Assembly (NCBI GenBank): GCA_964466945.1
Contig: CAYXPA010000009.1
Location: 37 to 64,036 of the forward strand
Origin: an uncultured Verrucomicrobiota bacterium
GTDB lineage: Bacteria; Verrucomicrobiota; Verrucomicrobiia; Limisphaerales; J093
Direction: 5' to 3'
Length of the DNA stretch: 64,000 nucleotides
Shown here: one piece after another, positions 4,659 to 61,069 of the stretch
How positions within the stretch are numbered: the first letter of the stretch is position 1
Layout of the letters: each line of letters opens with the position of its first letter
Notes under the pieces: model-generated
Databases searched by the model: none
Seen by the model: the letters and a program-made list of their open reading frames with translations, nothing else
What the model was told of the DNA's origin: nothing
Made by a program: the position numbers and the translations under genes

Positions 4659-5492
4659 GTGGTGAACCCCGCCGCCGCAGCGCCCGAACCCGGAGCGTCT
4701 CCCTCTGGCGCCTTGCCCGCGGGCGCGGCCGGCATGGGTAAGCCGCCGGCAGGCGACTCACCGAACCCGCCGCTCAACCCGCCGTCGCCTCGCCGCCCGC
4801 CGCCCGAGAATCTCTGGCTCAATCTCGGCTTCAACGCGGCCGCGCCGGCGTTGATCCTCACCTTCCTCAGCGCCCCGAACCGGCTGGGCCCGGCCGGCGC
4901 GCTGGTCACGGCGCTTCTGTTCCCGCTGGGCTACGGGGCTTGGGACTTGTGGCGGCGGCGGACGTGGAACCTTTTGTCCGCGCTGGGGCTCGCCGGAACG
5001 CTGGTGACCGGCGGGCTGGGCTTGCTGGAAATGAGCGGCTTTTGGTTCGCCGTGAAGGAAGCCGCCCTGCCGGTGCTGCTGGGCCTGGCCATCCCGCTTT
5101 CGTTGCGCACGCGCCAGCCACTGGTGAAAACTCTCCTCTACAACGACCAGGTCCTGGACACCACCCGCATTGGAGCAGCCCTGGCCGCGCGCGGCCAGCA
5201 GGCCCGCTTCGAGGCACTCCTGGCGTGGGCCTCGTGGGTGCTGGCGGCCACGCTGCTGGTCAGCGCCGCCATCAACTTCGCGCTGGCCTGGTGGCTCCTG
5301 CCCGCGACCTCCGGCACCGATGAATTCAACCGCCAGCTCGCCAAGCTCCAGCTCTGGAGCTGGCCGGGCACGTTTCTGCCCATGGCCGCCGGGATGTTCT
5401 ATGCGCTGTCCCGACTGCTCAAAGGCCTCGAGGCCCTCACCGGCCTGCGCGGCGAGGAGCTGTTTCACCCCCGCGCGCGCCGCGGCGCGTAA
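4659..5492 (+). CDS. Multi-pass inner-membrane protein (resembles the VC0807 / septation-protein-A-like family)
   Basis: 277-aa ORF with about 5-6 hydrophobic helices after a Pro/Ala-rich N-terminus. The start is uncertain: GTG at 4659, or a downstream ATG at the AAGMGKPP position. Confidence 0.65.
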   Translation: MVNPAAAAPEPGASPSGALPAGAAGMGKPPAGDSPNPPLNPPSPRRPPPENLWLNLGFNAAAPALILTFLSAPNRLGPAGALVTALLFPLGYGAWDLWRRRTWNLLSALGLAGTLVTGGLGLLEMSGFWFAVKEAALPVLLGLAIPLSLRTRQPLVKTLLYNDQVLDTTRIGAALAARGQQARFEALLAWASWVLAATLLVSAAINFALAWWLLPATSGTDEFNRQLAKLQLWSWPGTFLPMAAGMFYALSRLLKGLEALTGLRGEELFHPRARRGA

Positions 5493-7695: not shown

Positions 7696-9270
7696 ATGAA
7701 AACCGATTCCTTCCCCGCCCGTTGCGCCGGTTGTCCCCTCAACCGCCGCCAATTTCTCACCCGTGGCAGCGCCGCCGCGCTTGGCGTTGTGGGAGCGTGG
7801 ACAACGCCCGCCTCGTTGCTGGCCGCCCGCCCGAAAGCCACGCCTCCCGCGCGCATCCGCATCGTGTACGCGCTCCACGCGCCGGTCCAACCCGGCGCGG
7901 ACTGGCCGAACAAGGGCTTTGATTTCCGGCCGGTGATGGCGCGGGTCGAGCGCGAGCTGCGCCGCCGCTGTCCGGGTTTCGAGTTCGTGACCGCACAGGC
8001 CAGCGGCCCGGAGCAGGCCCGGCAAATCCTCGAGGCCGACCGGGCCGCCAGGAATGTGGACGGCTACCTGGTGTACCAGTTGAATTGCTGGAACCAGGTG
8101 GTGCAAACCTTCGCCGCGTCCGGCCAGCCGGTGCTGTACGCGGACTTCCAGTTTGGAGGCAGCGGAGGTTTCCTGGTGTACAACGCGGCCTTCCTGCGCC
8201 ACGGCGCCTCGAACGTGGGCTTCGTGGCCTCTTCGGACTTGAAAGACCTGGCGGAGGCGGTGCGGTGCTTCGCCCTGGTCAAGCAGGGCGGGTCGGTGGC
8301 GGACTTCGTGGCGGCCACGGCACAGGTCCGCGCCCGCAACACGCCCCCGGCGCGCCGCTTGGCGGTCCGGCCGGACCGCCTGCAATGCCTTTCCGCGGAG
8401 GAATGCCTGCGTGAGATGCGGCAGACCCGCATCTTGGCCGTGCGCGACCAAAACGCCGGCGAGGAACCGGCCATCGCCGGCATCCCGGTGCAAAAAGTGC
8501 CGTTTGCCGAATTGAACGACGCCTGGAAGACCGCGGACCGCGACGAGGCGCGGGCCGTGGCGGACCGCTGGCAACGGGCGGCCCGCAAGGTCGTGGGCGT
8601 CTCGCGCCAGACTCTCGAGGATTCCGCGGCGATGTACCTGGCCGAGCGAGCCTTGCTGGACAGGTACGGCGCGCGCGCGATTACCATCAACTGTCTGGGC
8701 GGGTTCTACGGTGGCCATATCCACGCCTACCCCTGCCTGGGCTTTGCGGAGCTGAACAACCAGGGCCTGGTGGGCGGGTGCGAGTGCGACGTGCGCTCCA
8801 CGGCCACGATGCTCATCGGCACGCTGCTCACGCGCGGCCGGCCGGGCTACATCTCCGACCCGGTGCTGGACACGGCGCGGCGTCAGATCATTTACGCCCA
8901 TTGCGTGGCGGCCACGCGGGTCTTCGGCCCGCAAGGTCCGGCCAATCCGTTCGAGATTCTGACCCATTCGGAAGACCGCCAGGGCGCCTCGCTGCGGTCG
9001 CTCCTGCCCGCCGGGTACCTCACCACGACCCTCGAGTTTGATTCCCACCGGAAGCAGATTCTTTTCCACCAGGCCCGGGCCGTGGGCAACGACCCGGATG
9101 ACCGGGCCTGTCGCACCAAGTTGTGCGCCGAGCCGGTGGGCGACCTCGAGAAGCTCTTCCGCGAGTGGGACCAGTGGGGCTGGCATCGGGTCACCTTTTA
9201 CGGGGACCTCAAGGAACCGGTGTACGCCCTGGCCGATGCCCTGGGTTGGAAGGTTTTGGCCGAGGCCTGA
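7696..9270 (+). CDS. Twin-arginine-signal protein with an L-fucose/L-arabinose-isomerase-like C-terminal region
   Basis: N-terminal NRRQFLTRGSAAALGVVGAW is a Tat motif. The block YPCLGFAELNNQGLVGGCECDVRSTATMLIG resembles the FucI/AraA-superfamily catalytic region. The antisense 580-aa ORF is Arg/Gly-rich and rejected. Confidence 0.68.
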   Translation: MKTDSFPARCAGCPLNRRQFLTRGSAAALGVVGAWTTPASLLAARPKATPPARIRIVYALHAPVQPGADWPNKGFDFRPVMARVERELRRRCPGFEFVTAQASGPEQARQILEADRAARNVDGYLVYQLNCWNQVVQTFAASGQPVLYADFQFGGSGGFLVYNAAFLRHGASNVGFVASSDLKDLAEAVRCFALVKQGGSVADFVAATAQVRARNTPPARRLAVRPDRLQCLSAEECLREMRQTRILAVRDQNAGEEPAIAGIPVQKVPFAELNDAWKTADRDEARAVADRWQRAARKVVGVSRQTLEDSAAMYLAERALLDRYGARAITINCLGGFYGGHIHAYPCLGFAELNNQGLVGGCECDVRSTATMLIGTLLTRGRPGYISDPVLDTARRQIIYAHCVAATRVFGPQGPANPFEILTHSEDRQGASLRSLLPAGYLTTTLEFDSHRKQILFHQARAVGNDPDDRACRTKLCAEPVGDLEKLFREWDQWGWHRVTFYGDLKEPVYALADALGWKVLAEA

Positions 9271-9381: not shown

Positions 9382-10257
9382 GTGGCCGCACCGAGCACCA
9401 GCGCCGCCGCGGGCGGGTTGACCGACGCCCTGAAGTCCGCGCTGCTCACCCTGCTGGCGGATGACGACCCGGCCGTGTCCGGCGCGGCCCGGGCGCGCAT
9501 CCTTTCCGAAGGCTTGGAGGCCCAGACCTGGCTGCGGCCGCACCTGCACAGCAGCGAACCAGCCCTTCGACGGCGCGTCGCCGAAATCCTCGACACCCTC
9601 GAGCGCCAGCGGGCGGACACCGAGTTTCTGGCCTTTTGCCTGCGGCACGGCGAGGAATGCGACCTCGAGACGGGCGTGTGGTTGCTGGCGCGCACCCAAT
9701 ACCCGGACATCAATGTCGCCGGTTACCAGGCCTGGCTGGACAGCATCGCCGCGGACATCCGCGAGCGCCTGGGCGACACCGGCCCTTCGCTCCGGTGTCT
9801 GGCGGTGCTCAACGACCATCTCTTCAACGAGCTGGGGTTCCGGGGCAACGAACGGGAGTTTTACGACCCGCAGAACAGCTACCTCAACCGGGTGCTGGAC
9901 CGGCGCACCGGCAATCCCATCTGCCTGTGCATTCTGTACTGGCTGCTGGCCCGCCGCCTCCGCCTGCCGGTGGTGGGGGTGGCCTTGCCGCGGCACTTTG
10001 TCTGCCGCTTCCAAACGCCCACAGACACGGTCTTCGTGGACGTGTTCCGGCGCGGCAAGCTGCTGACCCGTGCGGACTGCATCCGCTTCTTGCAACAGAT
10101 CGGCCAGGGGTTCCAAGAGAGTTACCTGGCGCCCACCACGGCCGGCCGCACGCTGCTGCGCCTGTGCGCGAACCTGCACCAGATTTACCACGAGCTGCAC
10201 CGGCGCGAGGACGAGGCGCGCTTTCAGCGGTACGTGGTGGCGCTGGCCCGGCACTGA
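9382..10257 (+). CDS. SirB1/YchA-like transglutaminase-fold plus TPR protein
   Basis: 291 aa with a GTG start. Blocks FYDPQNSYLNRVLDRRTGNPICLCILY and LPRHFVCRF are typical of the UPF0162/SirB1 family. Confidence 0.72.
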   Translation: MAAPSTSAAAGGLTDALKSALLTLLADDDPAVSGAARARILSEGLEAQTWLRPHLHSSEPALRRRVAEILDTLERQRADTEFLAFCLRHGEECDLETGVWLLARTQYPDINVAGYQAWLDSIAADIRERLGDTGPSLRCLAVLNDHLFNELGFRGNEREFYDPQNSYLNRVLDRRTGNPICLCILYWLLARRLRLPVVGVALPRHFVCRFQTPTDTVFVDVFRRGKLLTRADCIRFLQQIGQGFQESYLAPTTAGRTLLRLCANLHQIYHELHRREDEARFQRYVVALARH

Positions 10258-12340: not shown

Positions 12341-15300
12341 TTAGAAATTCAGCCGCAGGCTCACGGCCAGGGTGCGTTCGCGGGGAATCCAGGTCCAGGG
12401 ATTCAACGGATTGAGGCGGTAGTCGCGGTCGGTGAGGTTCAGCAGCGCCAGACTCAGTTCGGCGCGGCGGCGCGGGAAACGCCAACCGACCCGGACGTGG
12501 TGCTGCCAGAAATCGGCGTCGGCGGGGTCCGGGGTGTAACCCGTGTTTTCCTGGCGGCGCCAAACCGATTCCCATCCCGCAAACAAGCCCGCGGGGTGCT
12601 GGTAGTTCAGGGTCAGGCCCACTTCGTGGAGCTGGGCCGCCACGTCTTGCTCCAGGGCGTCCAGGTGGAGGGCGGTGCGGGGCAGGTCCGGGAAACGGGA
12701 GGTCAGGGCGTCCCGGGTTAGCCGGTAGCGCGCGCCGAGCGCGAGCCCGTCGCCCAGCAGGTGCACCGCGTAAGCGCCCAGGTTTGCCTCGTCCAGGTCC
12801 AGCGACTGGGGCGTGGACGTGGCCGTGTCCGGCACGGGCAGAAACCCGGAGTGGGTCAGCGCGCCCGCCACGCGCTCGCCCGCCGAGCGTCGCCATTCCG
12901 CCGAAAGCCCCACCCAGGTGCGATGCCGCCAAGACTGATCAAAGGCCAGGCCGGCCACTTCGAACTCGGCCCCGGGCACCAGTCCCACCACCGACTCGGG
13001 CAAGAGGCTGCGCCAGGCCTGCACGAAGCCCACCACCTGGGTTGGCTCCAGCCGCACGCTCTGGTCGAAAAACAACCCGCCCAGCGAGCGCGTATAGGCC
13101 GCCCGGAACACCCCCTCCCGCCACGGAGTCCACACCAGGCCGGCCTTGGGCGCCCAAAGGTCGCGCGTCGTTTCCCCGGCAGTCAGCGGGACCAGTTCCG
13201 TGTTACGCGGAAAGGTCACGCGGTCGTAGCTCACGCCGGCCGTCACGCGCAACGGGTCGGCCACGCGCCACTGGCCGTAGGCGTAAGCCGTGGCGCGCGC
13301 GAGGTCGGCGTCCAGGTGCTGATCACTCACCACGCCGGTGAGGGCGCGTTCGAGCGTGGCCGCGGTGGCCACTTCGCCGGCCTGGAAGCGGCCGCCGACC
13401 ACTCCGCTCAGGGGTTCGCCCTGCCAGAGCTGCTGCAGTTCACCCGAGTAGAGCGTGAAGTCGCTTTGTTGGCGCCGGGCAAAGCCCGGTTCGTCAGTGG
13501 ACACCTGGACAATCTCGTCGCCGCGCCGGCGCAGAAAAAGGACCTGTTGCTGTTCGTTGGCCAGTTCCAGGGAATCGTCGAGGCGTGAAAACAGGGCCAG
13601 CGTGTGGCTGGACGCCGACCAGCTTCGGTGCCAGCCGACCCAAAGGTTCGGCGATTGCGTCTCGGTCAGGTGCAGGGTGGGATTGGCCCGGGCGGGGTCG
13701 TCATACCGTGCAACATCGCCGGCGCGGCCCTCACTGAAGGCCACTTGGAGGTAAAGTTCGTCCCCGGCCGTGACGCGTTGTTTGATTTGGGTCGAGACGT
13801 CCGTGCGCTCGCGCCAGGCGTTGGGGGCCTCGCCGTTCAAGCGGTCATGGGCGAAGTCCACCGCGTAACTGAAGCCGTCCAGCGTCCCGAAGACCGCGGC
13901 ACGGTGCCGCCAGTCACCCCGGGTGCGGTACTCCGTGACGCTGCCCAGCCCGAAAGGGCGTGGTTCCAGGAATTGCAGGAACTCCTGCTGGGCGAGCCCC
14001 TGGGAGAGGTTGCCCGCGCCGGCGGGGGCGAGCAGGTTGGCCAGCAACAGCTCGCTCTGGCGCGCGGCTTCGTAGCGCAGGTCGAGGCGGTTCGGGTCTT
14101 CGAGGGCGCGGAAACTATCCGCCAACATCAGGTGGGCGGCGGCGTTGGCGTAGTCCTCTCCCACGGCGCGGGCGGCGGCGCGCCGGGCGGCCTCGGGCAG
14201 GCCGGCCTCTTGGTAAAGGGCGGCCTGGTGGGCGCTGCGCACCGCGCGGTCGCGGTCCAGCGCGGCGCGCGCGCGGAAGAGTTGCCGGTGGTCGTTGCGG
14301 GCGGCGGACTCTTCCAGGTCGCGGACCGCCGCGTTCGGGCGAAAGGTTTGGTGATGGTGAAGGGCCGAGTACAACCACGGGGTGGGATCGTTGGGGTCCA
14401 GGCGACGGGCCAGGTCCAGTTCCTTTTCGGCGAGGCGGAATTCACCGCGCTGGCTCCAAAGTTTGCCCAGGTAGGCGCGGTAGAGGGCGCGTTGCGGTTC
14501 GAGGGCGGCGGCGGTTTGCAGGGCCTGGCGGGCGGCTTCGGGTTGGCCCAGCCGCCACAAGGCCAGGCCGCGCCCCAGCCAGGCACTACCCAGCGCGGCG
14601 TCCGTGGCCAGGGCGGCGTCGAAGGCCGCGAGCGCCTCGCGCACGCGGTGCTCGTCCAGCCGGAGAAATCCCTCGAGGGCGCGCGCCGGGGCCAGGCGGG
14701 GCGCCAAGGCAAGGGCGCGGTCCAGGGCGGCGCGGGCTTCGCGGCGGTGTTCGAGCATCCACTCCAACTCGGCCACGCGGGCATGGGCGTAACCCAGGTC
14801 GGGGGCAAGCCGCGCCGCCTGCCGGGCTGCGGTCAAGGCTTCCTCCAGCGCCAGGCGTGCCTGGGCGGTGTAGGAACGAGCCAGCCATTCCGAGGCGGTG
14901 CGGGGCGGCCGGGCTCCAGCCGGGGGCGCGGGGGAGAAGGGGCGGCAGACCACGTCGAGCAGTTCTTGCAACGCGCGGGCGGCCGCCGTGTCTGGCGGGG
15001 TATGTTGGAGGGTTGTTTCGGCCGTTTGGATTTGCCCCGCCGCCACGGCGACCGCCGCGCGAAAGAGTTCCCGGGCCGGCCCGCCGGGGGGGATTTGCTG
15101 CATTAAAGCGTGCGCGCCCAGCGGGTCCCCGGCCCGATAGGTGTCCAGAGCTTCCCGGAGGACGGCCAGGTCGGAGGCTTCCCAGGCCAGGTCTTCGGGG
15201 GCCAGGACTGCCGGATAATAGAGCGCCCATTGGATGTCCCGGCGCGTCGAGATCAGCGCGCACTTGCGCGGGGGTTGACCGGGCTCGACCAGGGCTTCTT

Positions 15301-15907
15301 CGCCGCTTTCCAGTTCGATGGCGCCGGTGCGCGCGCTCAGGTGGACCCGTCCGTCCAGCAGTGCCAGGCGAGTGATCGGAGGCGCGGTGGTGGATTCGAG
15401 CACGAACTCGGTGCCGCGAATGGCGCCGGAGGTCAACGGCGTCTGGAATTCGGTGGTGGCGGGCCGCTCGCGGTTGAAGAAGAAGAGCCGGCCGCCGGGC
15501 AGGCCAAAGCGCCGCGCGTCCGTGCCGGCCGGGGGCAAAATCTCCAAGGTGGTCTCGGCATCCAGCCGCAGGATGCTGCGGTCGGAGAACTGCACGGCGG
15601 CGCGGCTGGCCGGGCCGGTGCGGAGTCGGCTTCCCGGCCGCAGCAAGGCGCCCACGGTGGCGGGCTGCCAGGGGGCGGCTTCGGAAGGCATCCAGGTTAC
15701 TTGTCCGGCCGCTTCGATCAGCGTGCTGACCGCGGAAGCCGAGGGGTCCGGTTCGGCCGCCAGGGCGAGTGCGCCCAGGCAGATGCCGAGCCAGAGGCCT
15801 GCGGGCCCCGCCCTTCGGGCCGCCCGAAGCGCGCGCCGTCCCGCAGACACTGGTCCACCGGGAGCCGGACAGGGCGACTGAAGGTCAGGGCGGGCCCAGG
15901 GAATCAT
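12341..15907 (-). CDS. Exported FecR-like domain / TPR-repeat / C-terminal outer-membrane beta-barrel fusion protein (1188 aa)
   Basis: ATG at 15905-15907 precedes a signal peptide (LWLGICLGALALAAEP). FecR-like block (AVQFSDRSILRLDAETTLEI...IRGTEFVL). About 350 aa of TPR-type Ala/Leu/Arg repeats. The last roughly 550 aa have alternating beta-strand character, a LNLTDRDYRLNP block like TonB-dependent receptors, and a terminal LRLNF (aromatic C-terminal residue typical of OM barrels). Confidence 0.8.
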   Translation of the reverse strand: MIPWARPDLQSPCPAPGGPVSAGRRALRAARRAGPAGLWLGICLGALALAAEPDPSASAVSTLIEAAGQVTWMPSEAAPWQPATVGALLRPGSRLRTGPASRAAVQFSDRSILRLDAETTLEILPPAGTDARRFGLPGGRLFFFNRERPATTEFQTPLTSGAIRGTEFVLESTTAPPITRLALLDGRVHLSARTGAIELESGEEALVEPGQPPRKCALISTRRDIQWALYYPAVLAPEDLAWEASDLAVLREALDTYRAGDPLGAHALMQQIPPGGPARELFRAAVAVAAGQIQTAETTLQHTPPDTAAARALQELLDVVCRPFSPAPPAGARPPRTASEWLARSYTAQARLALEEALTAARQAARLAPDLGYAHARVAELEWMLEHRREARAALDRALALAPRLAPARALEGFLRLDEHRVREALAAFDAALATDAALGSAWLGRGLALWRLGQPEAARQALQTAAALEPQRALYRAYLGKLWSQRGEFRLAEKELDLARRLDPNDPTPWLYSALHHHQTFRPNAAVRDLEESAARNDHRQLFRARAALDRDRAVRSAHQAALYQEAGLPEAARRAAARAVGEDYANAAAHLMLADSFRALEDPNRLDLRYEAARQSELLLANLLAPAGAGNLSQGLAQQEFLQFLEPRPFGLGSVTEYRTRGDWRHRAAVFGTLDGFSYAVDFAHDRLNGEAPNAWRERTDVSTQIKQRVTAGDELYLQVAFSEGRAGDVARYDDPARANPTLHLTETQSPNLWVGWHRSWSASSHTLALFSRLDDSLELANEQQQVLFLRRRGDEIVQVSTDEPGFARRQQSDFTLYSGELQQLWQGEPLSGVVGGRFQAGEVATAATLERALTGVVSDQHLDADLARATAYAYGQWRVADPLRVTAGVSYDRVTFPRNTELVPLTAGETTRDLWAPKAGLVWTPWREGVFRAAYTRSLGGLFFDQSVRLEPTQVVGFVQAWRSLLPESVVGLVPGAEFEVAGLAFDQSWRHRTWVGLSAEWRRSAGERVAGALTHSGFLPVPDTATSTPQSLDLDEANLGAYAVHLLGDGLALGARYRLTRDALTSRFPDLPRTALHLDALEQDVAAQLHEVGLTLNYQHPAGLFAGWESVWRRQENTGYTPDPADADFWQHHVRVGWRFPRRRAELSLALLNLTDRDYRLNPLNPWTWIPRERTLAVSLRLNF

Positions 15908-16231
15908 GTGGGAGCCGGGGTTGTCCCACCCGCGGGAGCATTGCCTCCGAGCGGGCGTGCCCGCGGATGTTCGCCGTTTCTTCCAGGTCGGCAAGTCCGC
16001 GGCGGGATTCCGCCCCGGAACCGGCCATCCGGCAACTTGGAAGATGAGGCCCAGCATGTGAGTTTGGAGGCGGAAGGTTTCGCTCCGGCGGGTCCCGGCC
16101 GGGGACAACCCGAACCCGGACCGGGAACACCGCCGGAGCCACCGTTTTACGGTGCAGGGCGGGCTAGCAGCCCAAAACCGTACCCTTTATTTTGCACGAG
16201 GTTCATGGTCGTCTCTGGGCTGGACTGCTCA

Positions 16232-17716
16232 TCAATCAGGGTCCCCGTTGTGACCCGAGTGGTCCGCGCTGCGGCCGGACTCATCGTGGTCACCGTCGTC
16301 ATCGGAGCCGCTGTCCTGACTGCTGCGGTCGTCACCGTCGGGGTCGCTGTCCTGGCCCGAGGGATCGTCGCTTTCACCGTCGTGGCCGGAGGCGTCGTCG
16401 CCATCGGAGTCACCGTCGTGACCGGGTTGGTCGTCACCGTCGTTGTCGCTGTCCTGGCCTGAGGGATCGTCGCTGTCGCCGTCGTGACCAGAGGCGTCGT
16501 CGCCGTCGGAGTCACTGTCGTGGCCGGATTGATCGTCACCGTCGTTGTCGCTGTCCTGGCCCGAGGGATCGTCGCTTTCACCGTCGTGGCCGGAGGCGTC
16601 GTCGCCATCGGAGTCACTGTCGTGGCCGGATTGGTCGTCACCGTCGTTGTCTCTGTCGTGACCGGATTGGTCGTCGCTGTCGCCGTCATCTGACGGGTTA
16701 TCGTCGGGTGCTGCGCCGCCGGGCTGAAGCCCCACGGCGCTAAATCCGCCGCGGTCAACATCCTTGAGGACGTTGTTTTTGAATTCCCGCCGCACGAAGG
16801 TGCCCTGGGCGCCGTTGGCAAAGGTCAGATCGTACTCGTCCCATTGGCCAACCTTGAAGCCGACCACCAACCGCGCGGTGTTGGTGCCGGTGAGGGTGTA
16901 TTCGTAGGTGAAGCGATGGCTGTCGTCCCCGGGTTCGTTGTCTTCGTACTCGATTCCCTCGGTGGCGGTGGTGAAGTGGAGTCGCTCGGGATCGTCCCCG
17001 GCTTGGAAGGCATAGGCCAGGCCGGTAAGCGCGGTGGGGACCGGGAGGTCCGCGCCCGGTGTGGTGCTGCCATCACCGCCGCCCGGATTGCCGGGCGAGC
17101 CGCCGTTCACCACGTGGAAGGTCCCGGTGTCCCGGTCGGTCACCTGACCCTTGCGGATTTCCTCCCGGGCCCAGGTGCCCAGCCCGGGCGAGGTAAAGGA
17201 CAGGGTCAGCACCTGGGACTCGTGGTCGGCGAAATTCAGCTCCAAGCGCACCTGGTTCAATCCCGGCCGGCTGAAGGTGTAGGTGAAGGGGTCCGGGGTG
17301 GGACCGCTTTCCTCACCGGTCGAGTCGGTCAGGAAACGCAGCAGGTCATGGCCCGGGGTGTCGTCCAGTTGGAGCGTCAGCCCGGTCATGGTCCAGGGCG
17401 CCAGGTCGTTGGTGGGCGCGGTTTGGATTTGCAGGCGGTAGTTGCCGTAGCTGACCTCGCCGCCATTGCGGGTGGAGAAGACCTGCGTGACCTTGTTTCC
17501 CAGGGCAAACACCGGTTGCCCGATGTTGACCCAGTCCACCAGGTTCGAGGAGCCCTGCAGGAGGTAAACCTGCCCGGGCACGGTGTCGAATTCCACCTCA
17601 ATGGCGGTGTAGATTTTCAGCGCCGAAGGTTGTTGCGCCTGTCCGATCGGGATCGGTCCAAGGAGCAGTCCCAATCCCAGCGGCAGGAGGTGATGAGTGA
17701 GGGTTTGGAGTTTCAT
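16232..17716 (-). CDS. Secreted protein of unknown function with a C-terminal Asp/Ser/Gly/His-rich tandem-repeat tail (494 aa)
   Basis: ATG at 17714-17716 gives the signal peptide MKLQTLTHHLLPLGLGLLLGPIPIGQAQQ. Beta-rich N-terminal domains. The last roughly 150 aa are repeats of DQSGHDSDSDGDDASGHDGESDDPSGQDSDNDGD. Confidence 0.75.
   Translation of the reverse strand: MKLQTLTHHLLPLGLGLLLGPIPIGQAQQPSALKIYTAIEVEFDTVPGQVYLLQGSSNLVDWVNIGQPVFALGNKVTQVFSTRNGGEVSYGNYRLQIQTAPTNDLAPWTMTGLTLQLDDTPGHDLLRFLTDSTGEESGPTPDPFTYTFSRPGLNQVRLELNFADHESQVLTLSFTSPGLGTWAREEIRKGQVTDRDTGTFHVVNGGSPGNPGGGDGSTTPGADLPVPTALTGLAYAFQAGDDPERLHFTTATEGIEYEDNEPGDDSHRFTYEYTLTGTNTARLVVGFKVGQWDEYDLTFANGAQGTFVRREFKNNVLKDVDRGGFSAVGLQPGGAAPDDNPSDDGDSDDQSGHDRDNDGDDQSGHDSDSDGDDASGHDGESDDPSGQDSDNDGDDQSGHDSDSDGDDASGHDGDSDDPSGQDSDNDGDDQPGHDGDSDGDDASGHDGESDDPSGQDSDPDGDDRSSQDSGSDDDGDHDESGRSADHSGHNGDPD
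16343..16648 (-). repeat. Three exact-period 102-bp tandem repeats (coding) with partial copies on both flanks
   Basis: Units start at 16343, 16445 and 16547, each beginning GTCGCTGTCCTGGCC. Units 1 and 3 are nearly identical and unit 2 differs at several positions. Degenerate copies extend to about 16290 and 16690. Confidence 0.9.
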
Positions 17717-17784
17717 GGTGCGTTGTGCTTCTCTGTGGTTTGTTCGATTCATTCTGTCGTTGTGCACGAACGTAACCAGGCCTG

Positions 17785-17800
17785 AGCAGCCGGCCTGCCA
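17785..17800 (-). promoter_or_regulatory. Sigma-54-type -24/-12 promoter upstream of the acidic-repeat protein gene
   Basis: The minus strand reads TGGCAG-GCCGG-CTGCT, with GG and GC at consensus spacing. It sits about 70 nt upstream of the ATG at 17716. Confidence 0.5.
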
Positions 17801-17884
17801 AGGCGAAAAAGTGCTGAATTGGCGAGGTTTTTTCCCGCTTGGGCGCCTCGTTTCCACGCGGTCCGTGCCGGAGGCGGAACACCC

Positions 17885-17902
17885 GGTTCCACAGACGGAA
17901 CA
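17885..17902 (-). promoter_or_regulatory. Candidate enhancer (UAS) dyad GGTTCC-N6-GGAACA
   Basis: Imperfect inverted repeat of the same type as the two dyads at 20234-20281. Its centre is about 95 nt upstream of the -24 element at 17785-17800. An overlapping GGAAC-N5-GTTCC lies at 17876-17890. Confidence 0.45.
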
Positions 17903-18041
17903 CCGACGGGGTCTCTCAACGGGATTGGACCGAACACCTCGGGGCGGGCACCGGTAGAACGGCCCGAGGGTACGTCGCCATCGGGCCAGCGGGGTTTCCA
18001 TTCCCGGGGGCAGGGCGGCGCACACCGACCCGGCCGGCCGC

Positions 18042-20024
18042 CTACTCGACGCGCAGCCGGTAAATCTGCACGCCGTTGGTCAGCGGCGGCACGTAGGGGA
18101 AAAACGTGTTGGTCCCGGTCACAAAAGGTGTGAGCAAGCGCCACGGTCCCAACGGGGATTCCGTGCCCTCGAGGGCATGATACTGGGCGGGCGGCAACTC
18201 CGCATCAAGTACGTGGGCGCCCGGCCGGATTGGTTGCCATTTGAGCGTTGGCGGCACCAAGACCCGTACCTCGAACGGAACTTCAAGCGGCCCGCCGAAC
18301 GCGTTGGACACGGTGAGGATGTAGGTCCCGCTGATCTCCGGAGCCACGGCCCGCAGGCGGAGTTGTGCGTTGGTTTCCCCCGGCAAGGGTTCCCCGCCGC
18401 GCAGCCAAGAGTAAAACAGAGGCTCGGCGCCACGCACGTCGGCCTGGAGCACGCATTCCTGCCCCAGCGCCACCCGTTGGACCGCGGGCAGCGCGGCCAG
18501 TCGGGGCGCCTGGGCCGGCGCCGCCGGCTGCAAGACGTAGTTCAACCGCGCGATGCCGGTCTCCCCGCGCACCCCGGCGATCCGGACCAAGTACGGCCGG
18601 CCGGGCTCAACGGGGAGGCTCACCTGATCAGCTCCGCCGGCTTGCAAACGGTCGTTGTCACAGCCCAGCAAGACCAGGTCCGCGTAGCTCGCCGGCGGAT
18701 TGGTGTAAGTGAAGACGGCCAGGACCGTGTCGAAATCGCTCCCGCGGGTATCCAGCGTAAGCAGGCCGTTGGTGGCGGGTTCGTAGGCGAACCAGTGAGA
18801 GCCGCCACTCACCACCCCGCAGGGTTGGGGTTCGTCGGGGTCGCTCGTGGCTCGCACCGTGCTGAAGACCTGACTGCCGTTGTACCCGCGCGCCACACCC
18901 AGACCGGCCAGAGCAGGTCCGGCGCGCGCCGCGCCGGCGCGCTTGAGCGTAACCCGCCCGGCGCGCAGCGGCAGTCCCGGGCGGCTTGTCGCGGACAGGC
19001 CTGTCGGCTGCGGTTCCTCGGGAGGGTCTTCCTCGTCCGCCCCGTCCTCGTCTTCGTCCTCGTCCTCCTCGCTCTCTCCGTCATCCCCCACCAGGGGTGT
19101 ATCCAGCGCGTCGAACAACTTGTCGCGGGCCAGGCTGTTGGTCAGGCCATCCGAGTTGATTTGCAACTCCACCGGCGCGGTCTCGAATTGCACGTCCCCA
19201 ATTCGGATGCGCAGGGTGTAACGGCCCAGGTCGTTGGTCCGCAAGCCGGGGATTTCCAGCGTCGGCCCGCGCACCCCCAACGATTCCCCGTTACGCCGCC
19301 AGCGTAATTCCACGTCGTCCGCCTCCCCCGCATACCCGGTCAAGAGCACACTCAGCACCACCGGGTCGCCCTGGCGCGCGGCGCGGTCCCGGGGCAACCC
19401 CACCACCAACGGCGGCGTTTGCGGAGTCACTTCCAGCGTCCAGCTCAACCGCAGGCTGCCTGTGGCCCCGCGATATCCGTCCACGGCGATGTGGTACACC
19501 TCGCCCGCGCGCACGCCCACCTCGACGCGACTGGTCCTCCGGCCCGTGAGTTCGTCCTCCTCGTCGTCGTCTTCCCCCGCCTCGCGGAGCCGGTCGAGCG
19601 AGGTGTCCGTGGATCGCGCGAAGGTGTAAACGCCCAGCAAAGTGTCCAGCTCGCTACCCTCGGTGCTGAACCGCACCACCCCATTCGCCGGTGCCTGCCA
19701 CGCAATCCACACCGAGGCGCCTCCGCGCTTGCCACCGTGCCGCGGCTCGCCCGGCTCCACCGTCGCGCCCACGTTGCTGCCCACCACCTCGCCGGCCGGG
19801 CCGCTGAGCAGTTCCCGCGCGGCGAACGCATCGCGGAACTCCGCGGCCCCCGCGATCGGCGCGGCGCACAGGAGCCCCAGGCCCAGACCGTAGAACCATC
19901 CCGCGGCCACTCCCCACCGACGCCCGGCGCCGGGGCGCTCCCGGACCTCCCCCAGTGCCGCCTCGTGTCGCCGCCCAGCATCGCCAAACTGGCTCAAAGC
20001 GCGGCGCAGAACGAGGAAGCTCAC
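18042..20024 (-). CDS. Exported protein with a duplicated [PPC-like beta-sandwich + Ig-like] architecture and poly-acidic linkers
   Basis: Signal/TM segment WGVAAGWFYGLGLGLLCAAPIAGAAE. Two copies of a GEP..GG.S.W....A...G....T.GS.(L/F)DT.L.V(Y/F)-type domain, each followed by an Ig-like module (RWRRNGESL...LGRYTLRI and YSWLRGGEPL...SGTYILTVSN). Acidic runs EDDDEEDE and SEEDEDEDEDGADEED. The start is uncertain. GTG at 20022-20024 is chosen because it lies downstream of the sigma-54 promoter at 20154-20169. The track ORF extends to 20315 and would overlap the regulator gene. Confidence 0.7.
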   Translation of the reverse strand: MSFLVLRRALSQFGDAGRRHEAALGEVRERPGAGRRWGVAAGWFYGLGLGLLCAAPIAGAAEFRDAFAARELLSGPAGEVVGSNVGATVEPGEPRHGGKRGGASVWIAWQAPANGVVRFSTEGSELDTLLGVYTFARSTDTSLDRLREAGEDDDEEDELTGRRTSRVEVGVRAGEVYHIAVDGYRGATGSLRLSWTLEVTPQTPPLVVGLPRDRAARQGDPVVLSVLLTGYAGEADDVELRWRRNGESLGVRGPTLEIPGLRTNDLGRYTLRIRIGDVQFETAPVELQINSDGLTNSLARDKLFDALDTPLVGDDGESEEDEDEDEDGADEEDPPEEPQPTGLSATSRPGLPLRAGRVTLKRAGAARAGPALAGLGVARGYNGSQVFSTVRATSDPDEPQPCGVVSGGSHWFAYEPATNGLLTLDTRGSDFDTVLAVFTYTNPPASYADLVLLGCDNDRLQAGGADQVSLPVEPGRPYLVRIAGVRGETGIARLNYVLQPAAPAQAPRLAALPAVQRVALGQECVLQADVRGAEPLFYSWLRGGEPLPGETNAQLRLRAVAPEISGTYILTVSNAFGGPLEVPFEVRVLVPPTLKWQPIRPGAHVLDAELPPAQYHALEGTESPLGPWRLLTPFVTGTNTFFPYVPPLTNGVQIYRLRVE

Positions 20025-20153
20025 GCCCTCATTTCGCCTGAGTCCAAGGTGCCGATTCACGGCAGTGCGATGTAAAATTCCGAGGTTGTTTGTGGTGGGC
20101 CGCCACGGCTCGGGAATCACCCCGGCCGTTGCCCACCCGGCACACTTCGGCCA

Positions 20154-20169
20154 AGCAACACGAATGCCA
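20154..20169 (-). promoter_or_regulatory. Near-consensus sigma-54 -24/-12 promoter
   Basis: The minus strand reads TGGCAT-TCGTG-TTGCT, against the consensus TGGCAC-N5-TTGCW. It is intergenic, 113 nt downstream of the activator gene stop, and oriented toward the 18042-20024 gene. Confidence 0.6.
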
Positions 20170-20233
20170 GCATCGCGCCCGGTGCAGCCGTCCCCTACGC
20201 ACGAGCTTTCCCGGTGAGCCGCGTTCCGAAGGG

Positions 20234-20281
20234 TGTTCCCGCGCCGGAACAACCCCGGCCGCGTGTTCGCCTTCCGGAACA
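20234..20281 (-). promoter_or_regulatory. Two candidate enhancer dyads TGTTCC-N6-GGAACA
   Basis: 20234-20251 is TGTTCC-CGCGCC-GGAACA, a perfect 6-bp inverted repeat. 20264-20281 is TGTTCG-CCTTCC-GGAACA. The centres are 30 bp apart and lie about 75 and 105 nt upstream of the -24 element. Confidence 0.5.
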
Positions 20282-21748
<1,467 letters not shown>

Positions 21749-21772
21749 GCGCCTGCCAAGCGCGCGGCTTTC

Positions 21773-24466
21773 TCAGCGGCCCAGGGCCCGGGCCACGCGC
21801 GCCAGCAGCTCCGACAGTTCGATGGGCTTGCCCAGGCATTCCACCCCGGTCGGGAGCGCGGTCGTTTCCGCCGCGCCGCTGAGCAGCAAAACGGGCAAAT
21901 CCGGGCGGCGCCGCCGCATGGCGGCCACCGCTCCCGGACCGTCCAGGAACGGCATCGTGGTGTCCGTCACGACCACGGCCACCGCGTCCGCCTCTTGCTC
22001 AAAAAGGGCCACCGCTTCCGCGCCGTGCGCGGCCGTCAGCACGCGGTAGCCGTGGTCCTCGAGGCCGCGTCGGAGCAGCTCCCGCACGGCCTGTTCATCG
22101 TCCGCCACCAGGATGAGCTCGCCCCGGCCGCGCGGCGGGCCGGCCTCGGCGGGTCGGGCGGGGGCCGTAGGTGCGCCGACCCACCGGGGCAGGAGGATTT
22201 CAAACGTGGCGCCGCCCTCTTCGCCGGACCTGGCGCTGATGAAGCCGCCGTGGGCGCGCACGATCCGGCTGGCGGTGGACAGTCCCAGCCCCGTGCCCTG
22301 ACCTGGGGGCTTGGTGGTGAAAAACGGCTCGAAGAGGCGCGGCAACACTTCCGGCGGGATGCCCGGGCCGGTGTCACTGACCATCAAGACCACATAGGCG
22401 CCGGGGGAGGCCTCCGGGTAAGCGGCGAGGTCCGCCGGGCCGGCCTCGAGGTTGTCCGCCACCAACGTGAGGGTGCCGCCCGCGGGCATGGCATCGCGCG
22501 CGTTGACGCACAGGTTGAGCAGCACCTGGTGCAGCTCGGTGGCGTTGCCCAGCACGGGCCACAGGTCGTCCGCCACGTGCGCGCACACGCGAAGGTTGGG
22601 GGGAAAGGTGTCGCGGATGAGCTTTTCGAGTTCCTTGATCAGCGGACCCGGGCGCAACGGCTGGCGGTCGCCACCCCGCCCGCGGGCGAAAAGCAGGACC
22701 TGGCGGACCATTTCCGCGCCCCGCCGGGCGCTCGCTTCCATGAGGGTCAACACGCGCCGGGTCTCGGCGTCGGCGGCGGTGCGGCGCAACAATTGGGCGC
22801 CCAGCAACACGGGCGCCAGGGCGTTGTTGAGGTCGTGCGCCATGCCCGCGGCCAGGGCGCCGATGCCTTCCATGCGCTGCAGGCGCAGGGTTTCGGCCTG
22901 GAGCTGGCGCTGCTCGGTCACGTCGGTGTTCAGCAGCAGCAGCGCCTGCGGCTGCCCGGCGTCGTCGCGGATCAACGTCCAGCGACTTTCCACGACCCGC
23001 CGCCGACCGGCGGCGTCGTGGTGCTCGAGGGACCCGTCCCACTCCCCGCGTTCGAGCGTGCGGGCGCGCGCCTCCGCCAGCGTGGCCGCCGCGGCCGGGT
23101 CCGGCAAAAAGCGCACGGGGTTTTCTCCGGCGCCCGGGTCGAGGGAGTACAACGCGCGGGCGGCCGGGTTCGCATACTGCACGCGCCCGTCGAGGTCGAG
23201 CACCAGAATCGCGTCGCGGGCCTTGTCAAGGAGCGCGGCCTGCTGGCGGATGCGGGCGTCGGCGGCGCGTTGGGCCGCCTCGAGCCGGCGCCGGGTGCGG
23301 TACCAATCGACCGAGTGAAACAACACCGTGGCCGCCCAGGCCAGGGGCGCCTGCACCCCGGCCGGGATGAGCCACGGAAACCAATACCCGCCGCCGACAA
23401 ACGCCCCCAGGGCCGCGGCCGCCCACGCCAACCACCCGCCCAGGACCACGCCCGTGGCCGCCAGCGGCCGCAGCCAGAGCAGCCCGGCGCTCGCCAACGC
23501 CATCCCCCACAAGCCCGCCCGCTCGCGGGCGGCGCCCGGGCGGCGCAGGCCGTCGTCGCGCAGCAAATTCAGCAACTGGGTGGCGTGGACCTCGACCCCG
23601 GGCATGAACAGGTCTCGGTCCCGCCAGGAGCGGTACGGGCTGCGCAACTCATCCCGGCGGGCTTGAAACGTGCCCGCCAGCGGCCGCGCGCCGATCAACA
23701 CCACCTTGTCCCGAAAGCGCGCGTCCGCCACGGCGCCCGGCTCGAGCGCCTCCCGGTAACTCACATGCGGCAGCGCAAACGGCCGGCCATAGTAGCGCAG
23801 CCAGCGGGGTTCCGGGTCCGCGCTCCGGGCCGCCGGCAGGTCCAGCAACCGGGCCGCGGTCCAACTCAGGCTCGGCCACGCCTCGGGACCATTCCGCAAC
23901 ACCAGGAAATGCCGGCGCGCGATGAAGTCCTCGTCCACGCTCAATTCCCCCAGGCCCCAGCCCGCGGCCGCCGCGCGTAACGGCGCCACCGGCAGGGCCA
24001 GGCGGGTCAGCCGCGTGGCCACGGGGCCGGTTTGCCGGCTCGACACGCCGGCCTCCGCCGCCAACACCACCCGGCCGTGTCCCCGGAACGCCGCCGCCAG
24101 CGCGGCATCCGCCGCCGGGTCCGGGCCCGGGCGGTCAAACACGATGTCGAACACCACCGCGCGCGCCCCGGCGCGGGTGAGCCGTTCCACCAGTTGCGCG
24201 TGCAAGGCGCGCGGCCAGGGTTGGGCCGGATTGAGGCCGTACGCGGCGAAGGACTCGGCATCCAGGTACACCAGGAGCACCGGCGCCGTGTCATCCAGGC
24301 GCGTCCCCAAACCAAACCAGGCGTAGTAACTGTCGTAGCTGGCCCGGAGCAGCGACCGGCTGGCCGCGGAGCCGGACCCGAGCAGGTACTCGCCCAGCAC
24401 AGCCAGCGCGAGGGCCAGCCCCCCGGCCAGGAGCGCTCGAGGACGGGCAAACCACCGTCGCCACAT
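21773..24466 (-). CDS. Hybrid sensor histidine kinase with a periplasmic CHASE2 domain, PAS, HisKA/HATPase and a C-terminal receiver
   Basis: ATG at 24464-24466 (MWRRWFARPRALLAGGLALALAVL). CHASE2-like block (VLLVYLDAESF...RAVVFDIVFD...VVLAAE). A cluster of TM helices, then a PAS-like region. H-box AAGMAHDLNNALAPV, G2 box GTGLGLS, and REC (ILVADDE...VVTDTTMP). It ends 24 nt before the regulator gene. Confidence 0.9.
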   Translation of the reverse strand: MWRRWFARPRALLAGGLALALAVLGEYLLGSGSAASRSLLRASYDSYYAWFGLGTRLDDTAPVLLVYLDAESFAAYGLNPAQPWPRALHAQLVERLTRAGARAVVFDIVFDRPGPDPAADAALAAAFRGHGRVVLAAEAGVSSRQTGPVATRLTRLALPVAPLRAAAAGWGLGELSVDEDFIARRHFLVLRNGPEAWPSLSWTAARLLDLPAARSADPEPRWLRYYGRPFALPHVSYREALEPGAVADARFRDKVVLIGARPLAGTFQARRDELRSPYRSWRDRDLFMPGVEVHATQLLNLLRDDGLRRPGAARERAGLWGMALASAGLLWLRPLAATGVVLGGWLAWAAAALGAFVGGGYWFPWLIPAGVQAPLAWAATVLFHSVDWYRTRRRLEAAQRAADARIRQQAALLDKARDAILVLDLDGRVQYANPAARALYSLDPGAGENPVRFLPDPAAAATLAEARARTLERGEWDGSLEHHDAAGRRRVVESRWTLIRDDAGQPQALLLLNTDVTEQRQLQAETLRLQRMEGIGALAAGMAHDLNNALAPVLLGAQLLRRTAADAETRRVLTLMEASARRGAEMVRQVLLFARGRGGDRQPLRPGPLIKELEKLIRDTFPPNLRVCAHVADDLWPVLGNATELHQVLLNLCVNARDAMPAGGTLTLVADNLEAGPADLAAYPEASPGAYVVLMVSDTGPGIPPEVLPRLFEPFFTTKPPGQGTGLGLSTASRIVRAHGGFISARSGEEGGATFEILLPRWVGAPTAPARPAEAGPPRGRGELILVADDEQAVRELLRRGLEDHGYRVLTAAHGAEAVALFEQEADAVAVVVTDTTMPFLDGPGAVAAMRRRRPDLPVLLLSGAAETTALPTGVECLGKPIELSELLARVARALGR

Positions 24467-59470: not shown

Positions 59471-59486
59471 TGGCGTTGAAGTTGCT
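59471..59486 (+). promoter_or_regulatory. Sigma-54-type -24/-12 promoter upstream of an orphan sigma-54 activator gene
   Basis: TGGCGT-TGAAG-TTGCT with consensus spacing. It is intergenic and lies about 168 nt upstream of the GTG start at 59654. Confidence 0.5.
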
Positions 59487-59653: not shown

Positions 59654-61069
59654 GTGAAACATCGTGTCCTGATCATTGACGACGACGCGCAACTCCGGGA
59701 ACTGGTGCGCGACTACCTGGCCCCGGCCGGCCACGAGGTCCTTTTCGCCGGCAGCGCCCGGGACATCCGCCAGCAATCTGACCAGAGCGAGCCGGACGTC
59801 ATCCTGTTGGATTGGCGCCTGCCGGATGCCGACGGCTTGGAGTTGCTGCCCGAACTCAAGGACCGCTGGCCCACCAGCGAGGTGATCTTCGTCACCGGCT
59901 TCGCCTCCTTCGACACCGCGGTGGAGGCGGTCAAACGCGGGGCCTTTCACTTCCTGAGCAAACCTTTCGCGCTGGAATTGCTCGGCCCGTTGCTCGAGCG
60001 GGCCTGCGAACACCGCCTGCTCCACACCCGGGCCGACACCTTCGAGCGCGCCCTCCAAAACCTCCAGCAACGCCCGCCCCCGGTCTTCCGCAGCGCCACG
60101 TCCGTGGCCCTGCTGCACCTGGTCGAGCGCGTGGCCGCCAGCGATGCCCCGGTCCTCATCACCGGCGAAAGCGGCACCGGCAAAGAAGTCGTGGCCGACC
60201 TCATCCACGCCCTGAGTGCCCGCGCCGGGCAGCCGTTTGTGAAGGTCAACTGCGCCGCGCTGCCCCGCGAATTGTTCGAGAGCGAACTCTTCGGCGCCGT
60301 GCGCGGCGCCTACACCGGCGCCGAAACGGACCGGGACGGGCTCTTCAAGCAGGCCGCCGACGGCTCGATCCTGCTGGACGAGATCACCGAGATGCCCTTG
60401 GAAACCCAGGCCAAACTCCTGCGGGTCCTCCAGGAACGCCTCTACCGGCCGGTGGGCGGCCGGACCACTTACCCGCTGCGCTGCCGGGTCATGGCCACCA
60501 CCAACCGCCGCGTCGAGGACGCCCTGCGCGAGCGCCACCTGCGCGCGGACCTCTACTACCGGCTGAGCGTGCTCACCGTGCACCTGCCGCCGCTGCGCGA
60601 GCGCCGGGAGGACATCCTGCCCCTGGCCATGACCTTCCTGCGGCGCTTCGCCGCCCAGGCCGGTCGCGCCATCACCGGCTTCGACCCCGAGGCCACTCGC
60701 GCCCTCGTCGCGTCGGACTGGCCGGGCAACGTCCGCCAACTGGAAAATGAAATCCAGCGCGCGGTGCTGTTGTGCGACCGGAATCAAATCCGCCTCGAAG
60801 ACCTGCACTGTCCGGCGCCCTCGCCCGCCACCCCGCCGGCGCAACCCACCACCATCGAGGACATGGTGCGGCTGATGATCCTCCAAGCCCTGCAGCGCCA
60901 CCGGGGCAACCGCACCGCCGCGGCCCGCGAGCTGGGCATTGACCCCAGCACCCTCTTCCGCCGCCTCCGGGCCTACGGCCTCAGCGGCAAAAACGGTCGT
61001 TTCAAAATCCCGTCCGACCTCGACGGCCAGAACATTCAGAGCGACCCCGCCGGGCCCCGGCTCAATTGA
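59654..61069 (+). CDS. Sigma-54-dependent response regulator (NtrC family), with no adjacent kinase
   Basis: 471 aa. REC (VLIIDDD...VILLDWRLPDADG), Walker A GESGTGKE, the GAYTGA loop, WPGNVRQLEN, and a Fis-type HTH (GNRTAAARELGIDPSTLFRRL). Confidence 0.93.
   Translation: MKHRVLIIDDDAQLRELVRDYLAPAGHEVLFAGSARDIRQQSDQSEPDVILLDWRLPDADGLELLPELKDRWPTSEVIFVTGFASFDTAVEAVKRGAFHFLSKPFALELLGPLLERACEHRLLHTRADTFERALQNLQQRPPPVFRSATSVALLHLVERVAASDAPVLITGESGTGKEVVADLIHALSARAGQPFVKVNCAALPRELFESELFGAVRGAYTGAETDRDGLFKQAADGSILLDEITEMPLETQAKLLRVLQERLYRPVGGRTTYPLRCRVMATTNRRVEDALRERHLRADLYYRLSVLTVHLPPLRERREDILPLAMTFLRRFAAQAGRAITGFDPEATRALVASDWPGNVRQLENEIQRAVLLCDRNQIRLEDLHCPAPSPATPPAQPTTIEDMVRLMILQALQRHRGNRTAAARELGIDPSTLFRRLRAYGLSGKNGRFKIPSDLDGQNIQSDPAGPRLN

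Follow-up and report, generated by a model that had tools for sequence, protein, structure and literature searches.

In the glnAp2 control region of E. coli and Salmonella, a sigma-54 promoter is preceded by two strong NtrC dyad sites, separated from each other by about three turns of the helix. The NtrC consensus is TGCACC-N5-GGTGCA, and NtrC sites are found ~110-140 nt from the promoter. NifA acts from an upstream activating sequence (UAS) of the form TGT-N10-ACA, with a strict helical-phase requirement at short distance. To our knowledge, sigma-54 control has hardly been studied in the Verrucomicrobiota, and our literature search returned no description of the operator reported here or of a CHASE2/sigma-54 system in Verrucomicrobia. 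The distance range of UAS elements and the role of the GAFTGA loop in enhancer-binding proteins are described in PMC7057263.

We analyzed a 64-kb stretch of DNA (the window; G+C ~69%) from an uncultured, metagenome-assembled genome. It is most closely related to metagenome-assembled Verrucomicrobiota genomes, and freshwater DNA metagenome runs contain the stretch. On evidence that is all computational, positions 20154-20281 very probably form a sigma-54-dependent control region, made up of a promoter, P1, and dyads to which the neighboring activator would bind. Together with a second promoter, P2, we propose that this region controls a small regulon of exported/envelope proteins conserved in Verrucomicrobiota.

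A kinase-activator cluster with two candidate sigma-54 promoters

Five consecutive minus-strand genes (12341-24466) encode a hybrid sensor kinase, an activator, an Ig/PPC-like protein, a 494-aa protein and a FecR-TPR-beta-barrel fusion (Table 1). The activator matches the Pfam families Sigma54_activat (4e-59), Response_reg and HTH_8, and carries a Walker A motif (GESGTGKE), a GAYTGA loop, a Walker B motif (LFLDEI) and an arginine finger (RLPPLRER); its Fis-type HTH, LGLSPQALLRRLEKWPELR, is kept in orthologues. Tyr replaces Phe in the GAFTGA-type loop of a small number of activators (PMC7057263). With an AAA+ domain that has the GAYTGA loop and a DNA-binding HTH, the protein is predicted to be a complete sigma-54 activator. 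The CHASE2 hybrid kinase, presumed to be its partner, is found within the same cluster in six related loci (L004, L005, L083, L162, L166 and L167), and homologues of the Ig/PPC protein also sit in this cluster in other genomes. The 494-aa protein ends in an acidic Asp/Ser/Gly/His repeat tail and matched no family in the Pfam search. Its N-terminal ~330 aa are 34-47% identical to proteins encoded behind P2-type promoters in L162-L165 and L167, and 78% identical to the L161 counterpart.

Table 1. Coordinates of the cluster genes and predicted control elements in the window.
Feature	Position	Strand	Basis or remark
CHASE2-PAS-HisKA-HATPase-REC hybrid sensor kinase	21773-24466	-	Pfam domains; start MWRRWF...
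NtrC-type sigma-54 enhancer-binding protein, REC - AAA+ - HTH_8, 488 aa	20282-21748	-	Pfam
Distal P1 dyad, one mismatch: plus TGTTCGCCTTCCGGAACA, minus TGTTCCGGAAGGCGAACA	20264-20281		Centre 105 nt from -24 GG
Proximal P1 dyad, perfect: plus TGTTCCCGCGCCGGAACA, minus TGTTCCGGCGCGGGAACA	20234-20251		Centre 75 nt from -24 GG
Predicted sigma-54 promoter P1, TGGCAT-tcgtg-TTGCT, TGGCATTCGTGTTGCT / TGGCATtcgtgTTGCT	20169-20154	-	GG 20168-20167, GC 20156-20155
In-frame starts below the predicted P1 transcription start	20120, 20060 (GTG), 20024 (GTG), 19997 (TTG), 19910 (GTG)	-	Candidates
Exported Ig/PPC-like protein, first gene predicted as regulated	18042-19910, start uncertain	-	Pfam Ig_3/I-set
P2 dyads TGTTCCGTCTGTGGAACC (17902-17885) and TGTTCCGCCTCCGGCACG (17881-17864)	17864-17902	minus-strand reading	Centres 95 and 74 nt from P2 -24 GG
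Predicted sigma-54 promoter P2, TGGCAG-gccgg-CTGCT, TGGCAGgccggCTGCT	17800-17785	-	Composite scan; spacer before 494-aa gene
Exported 494-aa protein, second gene predicted as regulated	16232-17716	-	ORF, ATG 17716
FecR-TPR-beta-barrel fusion, last cluster gene	12341-15907	-	Pfam

A preliminary description of this DNA had read P1 as a match to TGGCAC-N5-TTGCW at the invariant GG and GC. The sequence confirms this: the two dinucleotides are 10 nt apart, and each of the seven flanking positions scored is a match if Y is permitted at position 6. That description had also placed two dyads, one of them perfect, against the activator stop codon, with centres 30 bp apart and about 75 and 105 nt from the -24 element. 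Both dyads are there, upstream of the -24 GG, and measurement gave 30 bp and exactly the two distances listed in Table 1. The distal dyad, which has one mismatch, begins on the first base after the activator's TGA stop (20284-20282). P1 lies between that stop and the start of the Ig/PPC gene (at or below 20060) and is co-oriented with this downstream gene; Pfam, motif and GC3 analyses agree with the earlier statement that the site is intergenic, correctly oriented and beside a sigma-54 activator gene. From the position of the -12 element, transcription is predicted to start at ~20143. P1 is kept as TGGCATttgtaTTGCT in L161 and as TGGCATaccagTTGCT in L005. The proximal dyad is identical in L161, where a counterpart of the distal dyad is also kept, and in L001 and L166 the distal dyad's counterpart lies directly 3´ of the activator stop. 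Inspected by eye, the G+C-rich stretch that separates the dyads from P1 showed no IHF-like site. An Rfam scan of 15800-20400 returned a sub-threshold chance miRNA as its sole match, and the fold of the predicted 239-nt P1 leader was as stable as those of shuffled sequences (z=0).

The preliminary description had further argued that the real start of the downstream gene lies below ~20140. Three observations agree with this claim. GC3 in the ORF frame is at the non-coding level (0.63-0.73) from ~20225 to 20000 and reaches 0.87-0.93 only below ~19955, for a gene average of 0.83; a public gene call (P0001, 622 aa, 100% identical) begins at GTG 19910; and homologues of the Ig protein are mostly 550-600 aa long, with a signal peptide 20-45 residues before a conserved AEF/DxFADRE motif. 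The accompanying objection to an ATG at 20315 held in substance, as the longest-ORF start there is wrong by 250-400 nt, and erred in the codon, which is GTG. The start of the Ig/PPC gene is uncertain among 20060, 20024, 19997 and 19910. The predicted P1 leader between 20110 and 20000 (minus strand) is ~93% conserved with L161 (790-900), more than the following segment, 20000-19940, which contains a 3-nt indel and is ~60% conserved. In almost every leader behind these promoters, an A/C-rich tract (such as ACAAACAAC and CAAAACCAA) is found 10-25 nt before the start codon; this tract may be a translation-initiation signal that works without a Shine-Dalgarno sequence.

P2 is located ~70 nt upstream of the 494-aa gene's ATG. 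Its predicted transcription start, ~17774, would give a leader of ~58 nt. Both P2 dyads are kept in L161, and orthologous P2-type promoters (TGGCAaaGCgGCTGCTaa) precede the orthologue of the 494-aa gene in L161-L165 and L167. We found no dyad or -24/-12 site before the FecR-TPR-barrel gene (16260-15850); it is probably co-transcribed from P2, since no such promoter serves it alone in the window. No autoregulatory dyad or promoter was found before the kinase gene in this window.

Elsewhere in the window, a -24/-12 match, TGGCGTtgaagTTGCT at 59471-59486 (plus strand), is intergenic and upstream of a second gene for a REC-AAA+(GAYTGA)-HTH_8 activator (59654-61069). This second gene has no adjacent kinase gene, and there are no TGTTCC dyads at its -24/-12 match. 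A search of the 64-kb window for an RpoN box returned none; that the genome has rpoN is inferred from the two GAYTGA activators encoded in the window.

Rarity, recurrence and helical phasing of the promoter-dyad units

The string TGGC-N7-TTGCW occurs four times in the window, compared with 1.21 expected matches, and at least four matches were obtained in 3 of 100 shuffles. Two of the four lie inside coding DNA, at 10091-10106 and, within the kinase gene, at 22803-22818. Given these matches, the -24/-12 string alone is weak evidence and is not statistically special. The preliminary description had written the motif as TGGC-N8-TTGC(A/T), with about one chance match in the window; the expectation for N7 is 1.21, and the spacing needs correcting, as N8 misses the site and the canonical N7 finds it. 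We also scanned for composites, defined as a dyad of at most two mismatches whose centre falls 55-135 nt upstream of a -24/-12 site that matches at least five of seven flanking positions. Exactly two composites were found in 64 kb, P1 and P2, each with two dyads, intergenic, on the minus strand and in this cluster. In 300 shuffles that preserved dinucleotides, composites averaged 0.06, and not one of them had two dyads. The combination of promoter and dyads is far beyond chance. Dyads with at most two mismatches number five in the 64 kb, four of which belong to P1 and P2.

Relatives of the locus were found through activator searches of genome and metagenome collections and through contigs encoding homologues of the Ig protein, and 167 loci were fetched. 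Nine further loci (L005, L083 and L161-L167) share the cluster genes, in varying order, and the promoter architecture. The dyad-plus-promoter layout recurs at orthologous loci with proteins only 37-60% identical, even with a different gene order, and the predicted target genes are orthologous across genomes. The window and these nine loci together yielded 23 promoters, with the consensus TGGCA(c/a)-N5-(c/t)TGCT and invariant GG and GC, and 32 dyads, with the consensus TGTTCCG-N4-CGGAACA. L161, a close relative whose Ig protein is 86% identical, retains all four dyads as well as both promoters, and has diverged from the window in the stretch that separates the proximal dyad from the -24 element. 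In L005 (activator 59% identical), three dyads and the P1 counterpart follow directly after the activator stop. The order in L083 is activator-kinase, and here dyads 75 and 105 nt from TGGCATcatgaGTGCT come after the kinase stop. Dyad-plus-promoter units in L162-L167 precede the orthologue of the 494-aa gene, the Ig gene, the FecR-barrel gene (L166) and other exported-protein genes (Calx-beta, Kelch, Flg_new_2). Dyads accompany target genes that have no adjacent activator gene in L083, L165 and L167. Six loci with related activators (L002, L003, L004, L006, L081 and L084) had no clear dyad within the sequence at hand.

The density of dyads with at most one mismatch is 12.6 per 100 kb in the ten cluster sequences and 0.15 per 100 kb in a comparison set of 1.29 Mb around 150 non-orthologous activator genes, a difference of ~80-fold. 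Perfect dyads number 13 in the orthologous set and 0 in the 1.29 Mb. Across these sequences, the dyad is specific to loci with this activator orthologue.

The distances between dyads and promoters are strongly patterned. The scan admitted any distance from 55 to 135 nt, and the 32 observed distances fall in six narrow classes, one helical turn apart (61-63, 72-75, 83, 93-95, 104-107 and 124-127 nt). At a 10.5-bp period, the Rayleigh R is 0.84 for the 32 dyads and 0.82 without the close relative L161, with p from ~2e-10 to ~1e-8, values that are optimistic because sites at orthologous positions are only partly independent of one another. In 100,000 uniform random draws, 0.82 was never reached. 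The pattern is plain, and it places the dyads on the same face of the helix relative to the promoter. Phased distances of this kind are needed if DNA is to loop over a short range unaided by a bending protein, since the activator ring has to be on the polymerase's face. The earlier claim of a classic enhancer-binding-protein geometry is consistent with this helical phasing and with dyad distances within the textbook UAS range (PMC7057263).

Several further features of the related loci were noted. The CHASE2 kinase, activator, Ig/PPC protein, a ~590-aa protein with no Pfam family and the FecR-TPR-barrel protein form a conserved Verrucomicrobiota cluster of variable gene order (window 12341-24466; L005, L161-L167). 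In some genomes, genes for Calx-beta, Kelch and Flg_new_2/He_PIG exported proteins are inserted in the cluster, bringing their own dyad-plus-promoter units. L083 has a 75/105-nt dyad pair and promoter (8267-8394) ahead of an ECF sigma factor gene (8421-9155), a predicted sigma-54 to ECF cascade. The same locus has a second consensus promoter, TTGGCACcgggcTTGCA at 3667 (minus strand), with a dyad at 107 nt, directed away from the activator and towards a CarboxypepD_reg/cupredoxin-like gene. A single perfect dyad in L163, TGTTCCGGTCCCGGAACA, is situated between divergent -24/-12-like sites 74 and 93 nt away (2186-2365), one of which faces the activator gene. This arrangement suggests positive autoregulation and one enhancer common to two promoters.

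Proposed mechanism and alternative readings

The analysis shows the sequence elements, how rare and how conserved they are, their phasing and their restriction to loci of this activator. Activation at P1 can be pictured as follows, with phosphorylation, binding, looping and the transcription start as the steps that we infer from established knowledge of enhancer-binding proteins (PMC7057263). Sigma-54 RNA polymerase would form a closed complex on TGGCAT-N5-TTGCT. The CHASE2 hybrid kinase would sense a periplasmic signal and phosphorylate the REC domain of the activator, dimers of which would bind the TGTTCC-N6-GGAACA dyads via the C-terminal Fis-type HTH. These dyad-bound dimers would form an AAA+ ring on the promoter's face of the helix, 75 and 105 nt upstream. 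Through a short DNA loop, the GAYTGA loops could then contact sigma-54, at P1 as at P2, and ATP hydrolysis would open the promoter. Transcription would run from ~20143 into the exported Ig/PPC-like gene, and P2 would drive the gene for the exported 494-aa protein and probably the FecR-TPR-barrel gene. Because the same arrangement recurs in related Verrucomicrobiota, we regard this as a well-supported but ordinary kind of gene switch.

This reading has to be weighed against one in which the -24/-12 element is a chance string and the dyads are operators of another dimeric regulator, for example a repressor, or serve only autoregulation of the activator operon, with read-through or an overlooked sigma-70 promoter accounting for expression of the downstream genes. 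The four TGGC-N7-TTGCW matches, two of them within genes, are in keeping with a chance string, and the perfect dyad upstream of the activator gene in L163 points to autoregulation in at least one relative. A chance promoter, however, cannot explain dyads that occur together with -24/-12 sites at 23 places in 10 loci with phased spacing, and the dyads track target genes even without an adjacent activator gene (L083, L165, L167). A consensus scan of 17900-20400 also found no sigma-70-like promoter. We therefore consider this explanation very unlikely. One part of it is compatible with sigma-54 control: as there is no terminator between the activator and Ig genes, transcripts reading through from the kinase-activator operon may contribute basal, sigma-54-independent expression.

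Each dyad could fold into a hairpin with a stem of 6 bp and a loop of 6 nt, and the distal dyad comes directly after a stop codon, as might be expected if the dyads were RNA hairpins that terminate or stabilize the 3´ end of the activator mRNA. Neither dyad has the T-run that, with a G+C-rich hairpin, marks an intrinsic terminator. The sequences that come after the dyads are CGCGG and CCCTTC, and no intrinsic terminator was found in 17900-20400. Moreover, each position of the TGTTCC half-site is kept in 28-32 of the 32 dyads, and most departures are one-sided and uncompensated, the pattern of a protein operator rather than of a stem. Many dyads are also upstream of genes with no gene end nearby, at phased distances from the promoter. 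With no T-run, and with the sequence of the half-site rather than mere complementarity conserved, we rejected the hairpin or terminator reading, to which we would give hardly any credence. Dispersed copies of a palindromic (REP-like) repeat could likewise place similar dyads at several sites, but the scarcity of dyads with at most two mismatches in the window, nearly all of them at P1 and P2, and the lack of a perfect copy in the unrelated loci make this origin very unlikely on the sequence at hand. Sigma-54-dependent control through activator-binding dyads is the reading that we retain.

A wider proposal can be made only tentatively, and we think it rather doubtful as a whole: the CHASE2 kinase, the activator and phased TGTTCCG-N4-CGGAACA dyads might constitute a Verrucomicrobiota-wide sigma-54 regulon for an envelope/exoprotein module (Ig/PPC, ~590-aa and FecR-TPR-barrel proteins), feeding an ECF sigma factor gene in some genomes (L083), with operator and recognition helix co-evolving. 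Upstream of the Ig homologue in L082, a perfect TGGTCC-N6-GGACCA dyad (1958-2075) lies 95 nt from CTGGCAGgctgcCTGCA. The C-terminus of the L082 activator (5288-5452) has LGLTHQALLRRLQKW (LGLTHQ) where TGTTCC-type loci have LGLSPQ or LGLTPQ. Operator and recognition helix may thus covary, as judged from L082 as a single case, since no TGGTCC-type dyads were found in the short contigs of the other H-variant loci (L003, L004 and L006). If true, such covariation would mean that the specificity of a Fis-type HTH has been switched in nature.

As the mechanism is a textbook one, the locus is of value for annotation and for defining a regulon rather than for new biology. It offers a testable operator consensus, two promoters and defined predicted targets for an orphan CHASE2 two-component system, and the spacings illustrate, in a clean comparative case, the face-of-helix constraint on short-range enhancer looping.

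Comparison with NtrC, NifA and other sigma-54 systems

Repeated dyads lie within ~60-150 bp upstream of the -24 element at both promoters (75/105 at P1; 74/95 at P2), as is typical of upstream activating sequences. The nearest likeness is the NtrC enhancer at glnAp2 of E. coli and Salmonella, which shares the REC-AAA+-Fis HTH activator, the -24/-12 promoter, the two dyad sites ~30 bp apart on the same helical face and, as predicted here, activation by oligomerisation and looping. The operator at this locus is TGTTCCG-N4-CGGAACA, in contrast to the NtrC consensus, and its sites are closer to the promoter, at 62-127 nt. The kinase is a CHASE2-PAS hybrid, not NtrB, and the predicted targets are Ig/PPC, acidic-repeat and FecR-TPR-barrel proteins rather than nitrogen assimilation genes, in a host from the phylum Verrucomicrobiota. 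As operator, kinase and target genes all differ, we rejected an assignment to NtrBC proper; the activator would work like NtrC and is not NtrC.

The NifA UAS is likewise a TGT...ACA-type dyad upstream of sigma-54 promoters, and the phasing over 32 sites is the comparative equivalent of the helical-phase requirement described for NifA. The outer TGT and ACA triplets are, however, 12 nt apart here and not 10, the activator has a REC domain and not a GAF sensory domain, and there are no nif genes. Comparative-genomic reconstructions of sigma-54 regulons, for example in Clostridiales (PMC6615313), draw on a similar inference from activator-specific upstream motifs taken together with -24/-12 promoters beside the activator gene, whereas, so far as our literature search showed, this activator family, operator and phylum are not covered there. 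Collectively, these comparisons indicate that the predicted P1 unit resembles both the NtrC/glnAp2 enhancer and the NifA UAS and is a member of neither system.
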